Both the position numbers and the translations under genes were made by a program. A DNA stretch of 64,000 nucleotides from an uncultured candidatus Porisulfidus sp. (lineage in GTDB: Bacteria > Pseudomonadota > Gammaproteobacteria > Poriferisulfidales > Poriferisulfidaceae), in the NCBI GenBank assembly GCA_965204575.1, contig OZ241993.1:1040586-1104585 (forward strand), written 5' to 3'. The notes under the pieces are model-generated. The model did not search any database. It had not been told where the DNA came from and was given only the letters and a program-made list of their open reading frames with translations. Shown here one piece after another: positions 48,827-49,285 of the stretch (its first letter is position 1; every line of letters starts with the position of its first letter).

Positions 48827-48862
48827 CCTGCCCATCATCGGGAAGTGGTATTTGCATCTTTA

Positions 48863-49285
48863 ATGGAACCTAACATCGTTATGCATGGCCGATACATACG
48901 GGATCTATCCTTCGAGAATTTCGGTGCGCCGGCCTTGCCGGGGGACGCCGCCCCCGTCTTCGACATCGACGTCGGGGTGGAGAGCAGGCGGGCCCGGGAC
49001 ATGCACGAGGTGATGCTGTTCGTCCAGGTCACCGCCCGGCGCGAGGAGCAGATCGCGTTCCTGATCGAGTTGAACTACGCCGGCCTGTTCCAGGTCCAGG
49101 ACCTGGACGAGCGGGAGACGCGGCGTTTCCTCCACACCGAGGCGCCGCGCATGCTGTTTCCGTTCGTCGACCGGATCTGCGCGGACGCGACCCGGGACGG
49201 CGGCCTGCCGCCGCTGGCCCTGACGACCCCGGACTTCGCCCTGCTGTACCGGGAACGCGAGGAGAAACCCGCCGCCATCGACTGA
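48863..49285 (+). CDS. secB: SecB-like export chaperone
   Basis: YIRDLSFENFGAP, EVMLFVQVTA, AFLIELNYAGLFQV and APRMLFPFVDRICADATRDGGLPPLALTTPDFALLY parallel E. coli SecB segments. The start is uncertain (GTG 48845, ATG 48863 or ATG 48881). Confidence 0.85.
   Translation: MEPNIVMHGRYIRDLSFENFGAPALPGDAAPVFDIDVGVESRRARDMHEVMLFVQVTARREEQIAFLIELNYAGLFQVQDLDERETRRFLHTEAPRMLFPFVDRICADATRDGGLPPLALTTPDFALLYREREEKPAAID

Follow-up and report, generated by a model that had tools for sequence, protein, structure and literature searches.

The open reading frame at 48845-49285 on the plus strand of the window, i.e., of the whole 64,000-nucleotide stretch analysed here, encodes an intact SecB. It stands at the head of an island of genes for collagen-like adhesins and the enzymes that would modify them. 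We rate it as rather probable that this is a functional export chaperone of the SecB family which belongs to a distinct subfamily, is inherited together with the collagen-adhesin module and occupies the promoter-proximal position of the island between dapD and glnD.

The identity of the gene is clear. An earlier note on this DNA had called it a clear SecB homologue, and this was confirmed. The Pfam family PF02556 matches with E = 1.2e-34 and 119.6 bits, the cut-off being 26, and profile positions 5-139 of 141 are covered; against the solved SecB proteins of H. influenzae and E. coli the E value is about 2e-12. An AlphaFold2 model built on a 50-sequence alignment reaches a pLDDT of 91.4. It predicts strands at residues 4-19, 32-44, 47-60 and 63-79 and helices at 83-112 and 125-134, that is, the four-stranded antiparallel sheet, long helix and short C-terminal helix by which we defined the SecB fold. 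In Foldseek the model superimposes on 1FX3 and 1QYN with TM scores of 0.87-0.92 and an rmsd of 1.3-1.8. The third-position GC content of secB (0.86-0.89) lies in the range of the real genes of the window. The longest open reading frame starts from GTG 48845; the true start, however, is probably ATG 48863, because the homologues and a database copy begin with MEPNIVM. This copy (P0001) has 140 amino acids, is 100% identical and lies on a contig of 1,816,663 bp. The coding sequence would then be 48863..49285 (+), 140 amino acids in length.

Mutation of D20, E24, L75 or E77 abolishes SecA binding in E. coli SecB (PMC4257090). These residues align with D14, E18, L67 and E69 of the window protein. 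Across 19 sequences of its clade, positions 14 and 18 are D and E in all 19, position 67 is L, I or V, and position 69 is E or D. The positions that match C76 and Q80 of the E. coli tetramer interface are I/V and Y in the clade. By its sequence the gene product is a bona fide member of the SecB family of export chaperones, with export as its predicted function.

It is, at the same time, a divergent SecB. The protein falls into a clade with 98% neighbour-joining bootstrap support, whose nearest outgroup is alphaproteobacterial SecB; a profile search enlarges the clade to about 65 clusters. Some of the source metagenome-assembled genomes (MAGs) are labelled Gammaproteobacteria, others Rhodospirillales or Defluviicoccus. 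When a genome collection was scanned with the clade alignment, the matches listed were nearly all alphaproteobacterial SecBs, plus one genome of the clade, that of locus L008. The protein was also scored against the curated SecB equivalogs of NCBIfam (TIGR00809 and NF004390-4). The best model for the window protein is NF004392, with 131.2 against a cut-off of 143, and TIGR00809 gives 91.2 against 102.8. All clade members scored, i.e., the window and five others, fail these cut-offs (116-131 versus 143; for TIGR00809 81-95 versus 102.8), whereas the controls clear them, with 184-208 for three alphaproteobacterial SecBs and 352 for the E. coli protein on its own model. Judged by these scores and the tree, the window SecB is genuine but divergent, a member of a distinct clade and alpha-like in a genome of gamma-type gene order. 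Recent horizontal transfer, as far as base composition can tell, was rejected; the GC content of the clusters tracks that of their hosts from 0.44 to 0.75.

The gene order of the host is gamma-type on the following grounds. The window also carries lepB-era-pdxJ and yffB (of the arsC family)-dapE, which we take to be typical gammaproteobacterial arrangements. In E. coli K-12, dapD and glnD are adjacent with a spacer of 30 nt. In the window dapD (47595..48422, minus strand) and glnD (58220..61498, minus strand) form the left and right boundaries of the island and are parted by a block of roughly 9.8 kb on the opposite strand. To judge from gene order, such a split marks the cluster as a whole as inserted. 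secB is the first gene of the plus-strand island, which extends over roughly 9 kb and continues with two collagen adhesins, a lysyl-hydroxylase-like oxygenase, a galactosyl-/glucosyltransferase fusion, galE and a second oxygenase. The canonical context grxC-secB-gpsA is not encountered here. That E. coli secB lies beside gpsA, not beside dapD, as the earlier note had stated, is correct: its neighbourhood is yibN-grxC-secB-gpsA, and dapD adjoins glnD. With E. coli queries, no homologue of gpsA, grxC or yibN was found in the window or in any clade locus examined.

Some observations on the wider surroundings may be added. Just past glnD, at 61784-63087, the window carries an AbiEi-like gene (PADLOC 1.3e-53) and a VapB/VapC pair. 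The stretch 40000-43500 has a lower GC content (0.53-0.57) and contains a gene resembling DNA methyltransferases and several open reading frames that match no family. A 3'-5' exonuclease of the PolB-exonuclease-like type (PF10108, 5.6e-81) lies at about 45300-46111, between cysM and dapE. In sphingomonads (about 30 Sphingomonadales loci within L013-L087), the ordinary secB follows dapE on the same strand at a distance of 3-6 kb. In the window, too, dapE and dapD are near secB, but they are divergently oriented and secB is part of the island; the likeness is probably a coincidence.

Upstream of secB, the sequence at 48798..48826 (+) resembles a sigma-70-type promoter. It reads TTGATA-17-TAAAAT, matches the consensus at 10 of 12 positions and has the TG of an extended -10 element. 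Two such sites were seen in the scanned region, as against 0.2 expected from shuffled sequences, so that the strong promoter-like element reported earlier holds as a sequence pattern. On the plus strand, no terminator-like site was detected from secB to 56200; the scanned region ends there and includes the island up to galE. The distance from the secB stop to the first adhesin gene is 11 nt if the latter starts at its first in-frame GTG (49297) and 29 nt if it starts at ATG 49315; the 30 nt on the same strand given in the earlier note thus corresponds to the ATG.

The same region is distinguished by two poly-C tracts, the sole homopolymers of at least 9 nt in the 64-kb window. A run of 20 C (48612..48631, +) sits in the divergent intergenic region between dapD and secB, about 167 nt upstream of the -35 element. 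The other, of 14 C (49325..49338, +), lies inside the presequence-coding part of the first adhesin gene; it is in frame as assembled, and a one-base change would shift the frame of the adhesin. In four relatives, too, the first gene of the cluster is closely preceded by a long run of C or G: L088 (361-376 and 390-398), L098 (5680-5702), L005 (9919-9928) and L008 (8015-8028). This pattern suggests slipped-strand phase variation of the operon as a candidate mechanism, the tract lengths being uncertain in long-read assemblies.

The presumed clients follow directly. Paralog 1 (49297..50727, +, starting at GTG 49297 or ATG 49315) and paralog 2 (50756..52189, +, with ATG 50765 behind AGGAGG at 50750-50755 as its likely start) are collagen-like trimeric autotransporters, both with Collagen repeats and a YadA anchor. 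They share with orthologues in L001, L003, L005, L097, L098 and L099 a conserved presequence of 85-105 amino acids (49297-49620 and 50756-51080 in the window). Its pattern is P-x-L-R...(D/E)W(W)...R-R-x-(V/I)-A-(V/I)-G-V-(L/M)-G, followed by a second hydrophobic stretch and by A-x-A-Q immediately before the first Gly-X-Y triplet. It is rich in arginine and tryptophan, has two hydrophobic segments and is kept in orthologues that are only 35-50% identical, and is therefore translated. In these features it resembles the extended signal peptides of autotransporters.

Downstream of the adhesins come the putative modifying enzymes. The first is a 2OG-Fe(II) oxygenase (52200..52832, +); among solved structures, human LH3 (in its lysyl-hydroxylase domain) and the corresponding domain of mimivirus L230 are most similar to it. 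It is followed by a two-domain glycosyltransferase (GT; 52816..54267, +), whose N-terminal GT25 part resembles procollagen galactosyltransferase 1 and whose C-terminal part resembles the glucosyltransferase of LH3/PLOD. The GT family has about 55 bacterial clusters with at least 52% identity; fusions of 580-650 amino acids are more distant members. GalE, a UDP-glucose 4-epimerase (55084..56055, +; TIGR01179 with 392 bits versus a cut-off of 262), would supply UDP-galactose; orthologues are also found in L001 and L088. A second 2OG-Fe(II) oxygenase (56723..57349, +) marks the far end of the island. Between the glycosyltransferase and galE there are two small plus-strand open reading frames (54287-54709 and 54738-55031) with signal-peptide-like N-termini and a lower GC content (about 0.62); they match nothing in Pfam, NCBIfam or PADLOC. 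Taken together, the stretch 52200-57349 looks like a seemingly complete collagen lysine pathway of the animal or mimivirus type. The oxygenase at 52200..52832 and the glycosyltransferase have no evident signal peptide when their N-termini are read by eye, and the other enzymes of this stretch seem to lack one as well. It is therefore plausible that the cluster enzymes act in the cytoplasm and that modification precedes Sec export, which lends support to the pre-export cytoplasmic modification proposed in the earlier note.

A tie between this SecB and the collagen genes is strongly supported by the comparison of loci. In nine of 12 independent clade loci, SecB lies beside collagen or oxygenase genes, as against 0 of 79 alpha-type SecB loci, none of which has collagen, oxygenase or GT neighbours (Fisher p = 2.8e-10). 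The window is one of the nine. L088/L089 (SecB about 74% identical to that of the window) have the gene order of the window, and L001/L002 (73%) read SecB, collagen adhesin, oxygenase, GT, galE. L005 (67%) has SecB, collagen, oxygenase and GT, and L098 (65%) SecB, collagen/YadA, collagen, oxygenase and GT. L003 (65%) shows the order collagen, GT, collagen, SecB, collagen, oxygenase, inserted in an ABC-transporter operon. More distant are L095/L096 (about 51%; oxygenase, GT, oxygenase, SecB) and L004 and L008 (50-57%; collagen genes, two oxygenases, SecB). As a side observation, the collagen/oxygenase/SecB module of L004, on a contig of 2.70 Mb, is closely preceded by the end of a called gene (positions 1-5175 of the locus) whose product would have 15,405 residues and includes a Calx-beta domain. 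The adhesin gene begins about 20 nt before the end of secB, and thus overlaps it, in L001, L005 and L098. The flanks of the linked loci are unrelated throughout, their hosts differ in GC content from 0.50 to 0.77, and the cluster genes match the composition of their host. We conclude that the genes have long been associated and have stayed together through much rearrangement. Beyond the loci, clade SecB and GT were found on equal-sized contigs in 12 representative pairs, plus one with a borderline, low-scoring SecB; this pairing was judged from equal contig sizes of cluster representatives, and only positive matches were counted. From the conserved gene neighbourhoods, clade SecB looks co-inherited with the collagen adhesins rather than merely neighbouring them.

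The three unlinked loci are L006, L093 and L094. In L006, clade SecB has housekeeping genes around it and lies between a STAS gene and gap-pgk-pyk-fba, while a collagen-collagen-oxygenase-GT cluster without a SecB of its own is situated 25 kb away on the same 119.8-kb contig. Taken as markers of an ancestral site, the neighbours of this SecB (rnfE, nth, STAS, gap, pgk, pyk, fba) gave no hits in the window or the other loci. L093 has SecB alone within 20 kb and no cluster genes; in L094, SecB sits on a 6-kb contig, again with no cluster genes. No cluster remnants were found around the lone SecB of any of the three. L093 and L003, which stem from the same sample, share the genes that flank SecB, namely PBP_like_2 to one side and aroQ-accB-accC to the other, with protein identities of 57-74%; only L003 has the collagen, GT and oxygenase genes. 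There they part the binding-protein gene of the ABC transporter operon from its permease and ATPase genes, which are missing at that position in L093. The module also occurs apart from SecB: in L099, an alphaproteobacterial MAG, the adhesin-oxygenase-GT cluster has no SecB within 10 kb, and L090 and L091, low-GC marine loci (GC 0.34), carry distant GT-oxygenase fusion genes (about 635 amino acids) and no SecB. L091 encodes, in addition, a collagen-repeat protein of 1461 amino acids. From these loci it follows that SecB is common in the module but not obligatory, and that it can persist apart from it.

The proposal of a cluster-specific SecB in the earlier note thus fared differently in its parts. 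The physical and evolutionary tie to the cluster stood (9/12 versus 0/79 loci); a dedicated paralog in place of the housekeeping gene is a possibility for this genome, and in L006, L093 and L094 the clade SecB lies away from collagen genes. The note had also named, as a finding that would speak against its idea, a SecB at the same position in relatives without the collagen cluster. L093, with the flanks of L003, is in part such a case.

Copy number also bears on specialisation. A tblastn search of the 64-kb window with its own SecB and that of E. coli detected no second SecB. In L001, however, a frameshifted second SecB of a different subclade (8960-9481) lies beside an extra 2OG oxygenase, and the intact copy follows immediately downstream. 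In two further cases a pair of clade SecBs, again of different subclades, comes from contigs of equal size, 5,783,922 bp and 408,269 bp. Two other genomes hence appear to hold two clade SecBs per contig, to judge from contig size rather than from the contig sequences. This points to several copies per genome in relatives, which would be unexpected for a single-copy housekeeping gene.

How might the system work? Gene identity, fold, SecA-contact residues, linkage, island position and clade divergence are at hand; client specificity, the order of events and the co-transcription of secB with the island we infer. Both adhesins would be made with a long basic, tryptophan-containing presequence and be released to the cytoplasm instead of being exported co-translationally. 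SecB would bind the chains and keep them monomeric and unfolded. The lysines of Gly-X-Lys triplets would then be hydroxylated and galactosyl-glucosylated by the cytoplasmic enzymes of the cluster. In animals, lysyl hydroxylases and collagen glycosyltransferases are not known to modify chains that are already helical. SecB would pass the modified precursor via its conserved acidic surface to SecA and on to SecYEG, and the YadA anchor would then trimerise in the outer membrane. Several steps have precedents. The segments bound by SecB measure roughly 9 residues, many of them aromatic or basic (PMC4257090). SecB is needed by the trimeric autotransporter EmaA and by several autotransporters with long signal peptides, and autotransporters that are glycosylated in the cytoplasm cross via Sec (PMC8151025). 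Aromatic and hydrophobic residues, which SecB prefers, are scarce in the Gly-X-Y repeats, so that SecB may bind no more than the presequence and the region of the C-terminal anchor. Of course, if the window SecB is the only copy in its genome, general export must be its task, too.

A bolder version may be formulated. The clade would consist of obligate client-specific chaperones that read the Arg/Trp presequence, hold the adhesins for animal-type lysine hydroxylation and Gal-Glc glycosylation, and have travelled with the module among hosts of the Alpha- and Gammaproteobacteria that also keep an ordinary SecB. We consider this possible, yet doubtful. If true, clade SecB would correspond, in bacteria and before export, to the chaperones that oversee collagen quality in the endoplasmic reticulum of animals.

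A plainer explanation is that the window SecB is simply the organism's only general-purpose SecB, placed beside an operon of heavy clients and without any adaptation to collagen. Fold and SecA-contact residues are indeed canonical, and the rarity of multiple solitary SecBs (more than one in only 26 of 1631 genomes; PMC4257090) fits, as do the small genome (1.82 Mb), the clade SecBs away from collagen genes in L006, L093 and L094, the missing collagen genes of L093 despite its L003-like flanks, and a cluster GC content that follows the host and thus suggests long residence. Such a housekeeping gene would, however, hardly be expected inside an island that splits dapD from glnD, as an alpha-like protein in a genome of gamma-type synteny, or in a clade that stays below the curated SecB cut-offs. 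Nor does it explain why, in nine lineages, SecB has remained adjacent to the collagen genes although the flanks were reshuffled completely (p = 3e-10), and why extra copies or remnants go with extra modules. On balance we regard it as unlikely, though worth keeping in mind.

Export may also be the wrong function altogether. A SecA-independent cytoplasmic holdase, reminiscent of the role of SecB for HasA or for the TAC antitoxin, could present unfolded chains to the hydroxylase and the glycosyltransferases or prevent their aggregation, with no role in targeting. The presumably cytoplasmic enzymes of the cluster would need a non-helical substrate. Sec-independent roles of SecB are documented (PMC4257090). 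A pure holdase, however, would have no need of the SecA-binding patch that is strictly conserved in the clade, and the clients bear Sec-type signal sequences and YadA anchors; we thus find this option quite improbable. That the gene encodes a SecB-like chaperone of the TAC type or of the anti-phage CmdTAC type has a negligible likelihood, and this candidate was rejected. A weak PADLOC match to PD-T4-9_C (22.5 bits) and the AbiEi and VapBC modules about 12 kb off might hint at it. But there is no adjoining toxin or antitoxin gene, the neighbours being dapD and a collagen adhesin; the Pfam SecB score is 119.6 bits; no sequence match to Rv1957 was obtained at E <= 1; and this TAC chaperone superimposes on the model with a TM score of only 0.70 and 15-17% identity, as compared with about 0.90 for canonical SecB. 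The protein is thus not TAC-type, a point on which the earlier note had called for a phylogeny. We therefore stay with the SecB-family export chaperone that is inherited with the collagen-adhesin module.

In the literature library searched, no paper connects collagen-like autotransporters, or bacterial clusters with lysyl hydroxylases, with SecB. The usual view of SecB is that of a generalist; dedicated SecBs outside TAC systems have been suggested, yet without defined clients. A SecB subfamily, its likely clients and their modifying enzymes in one presumed operon offer a testable model for the specialisation of a Sec chaperone. The model bears on how a trimerising collagen-type protein is kept export-competent and on how its hydroxylation and glycosylation in the cytoplasm are kept in step with export after translation. 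It is also of relevance to modified bacterial collagens as biomaterials.

Compared with known systems, the window protein shares with canonical SecB of E. coli and H. influenzae (PF02556, TIGR00809) the fold, the SecA-contact residues, a similar size (140 amino acids in the window) and the expected role of holding precursors unfolded for SecA. In contrast to E. coli SecB, to which it is only 30-31% identical, it stays below every NCBIfam equivalog cut-off, is encoded outside the grxC-secB-gpsA context at the head of a client operon in an inserted island, and has I/V and Y in its clade where C76 and Q80 contribute to the tetramer interface. Its nearest relative is the alphaproteobacterial housekeeping SecB of the NF004392 type (40-50% identity; best NCBIfam model). 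The latter, however, reaches 184-208 bits as compared with 116-131 in the clade, and has cluster neighbours in 0 of 79 loci; the host synteny of the window gene is gamma-type.

The solitary paralogs SecB1 and SecB2 of Francisella embody the same idea, an extra SecB having been proposed for specific substrates (PMC4257090), and the relatives of the window SecB, like the genomes with solitary paralogs, appear to hold more than one copy of the clade. Here, however, the presumed clients and modifying enzymes are linked to secB, which is not described for the Francisella type, and the second copy is seen in relatives only. The TAC chaperones (Rv1957; CmdTAC/PD-T4-9) are likewise SecB homologues genomically dedicated to partner genes; the window SecB, in contrast, has no toxin or antitoxin partners, resembles them much less than it does export SecB and is associated with exported proteins. 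Similar in terms of clients are the SecB-dependent export of EmaA and of long-signal-peptide autotransporters and the cytoplasmic glycosylation of autotransporters before Sec export (PMC8151025). The presumed clients of the window SecB, too, are trimeric autotransporters with long presequences, probably modified by cytoplasmic glycosyltransferases prior to export. Those systems use a general SecB encoded elsewhere, whereas the secB of the window adjoins its presumed clients. The glycosylated autotransporters known from them carry heptose or N-linked hexose; here it would be an animal-type hydroxylysine-linked Gal-Glc on collagen repeats.
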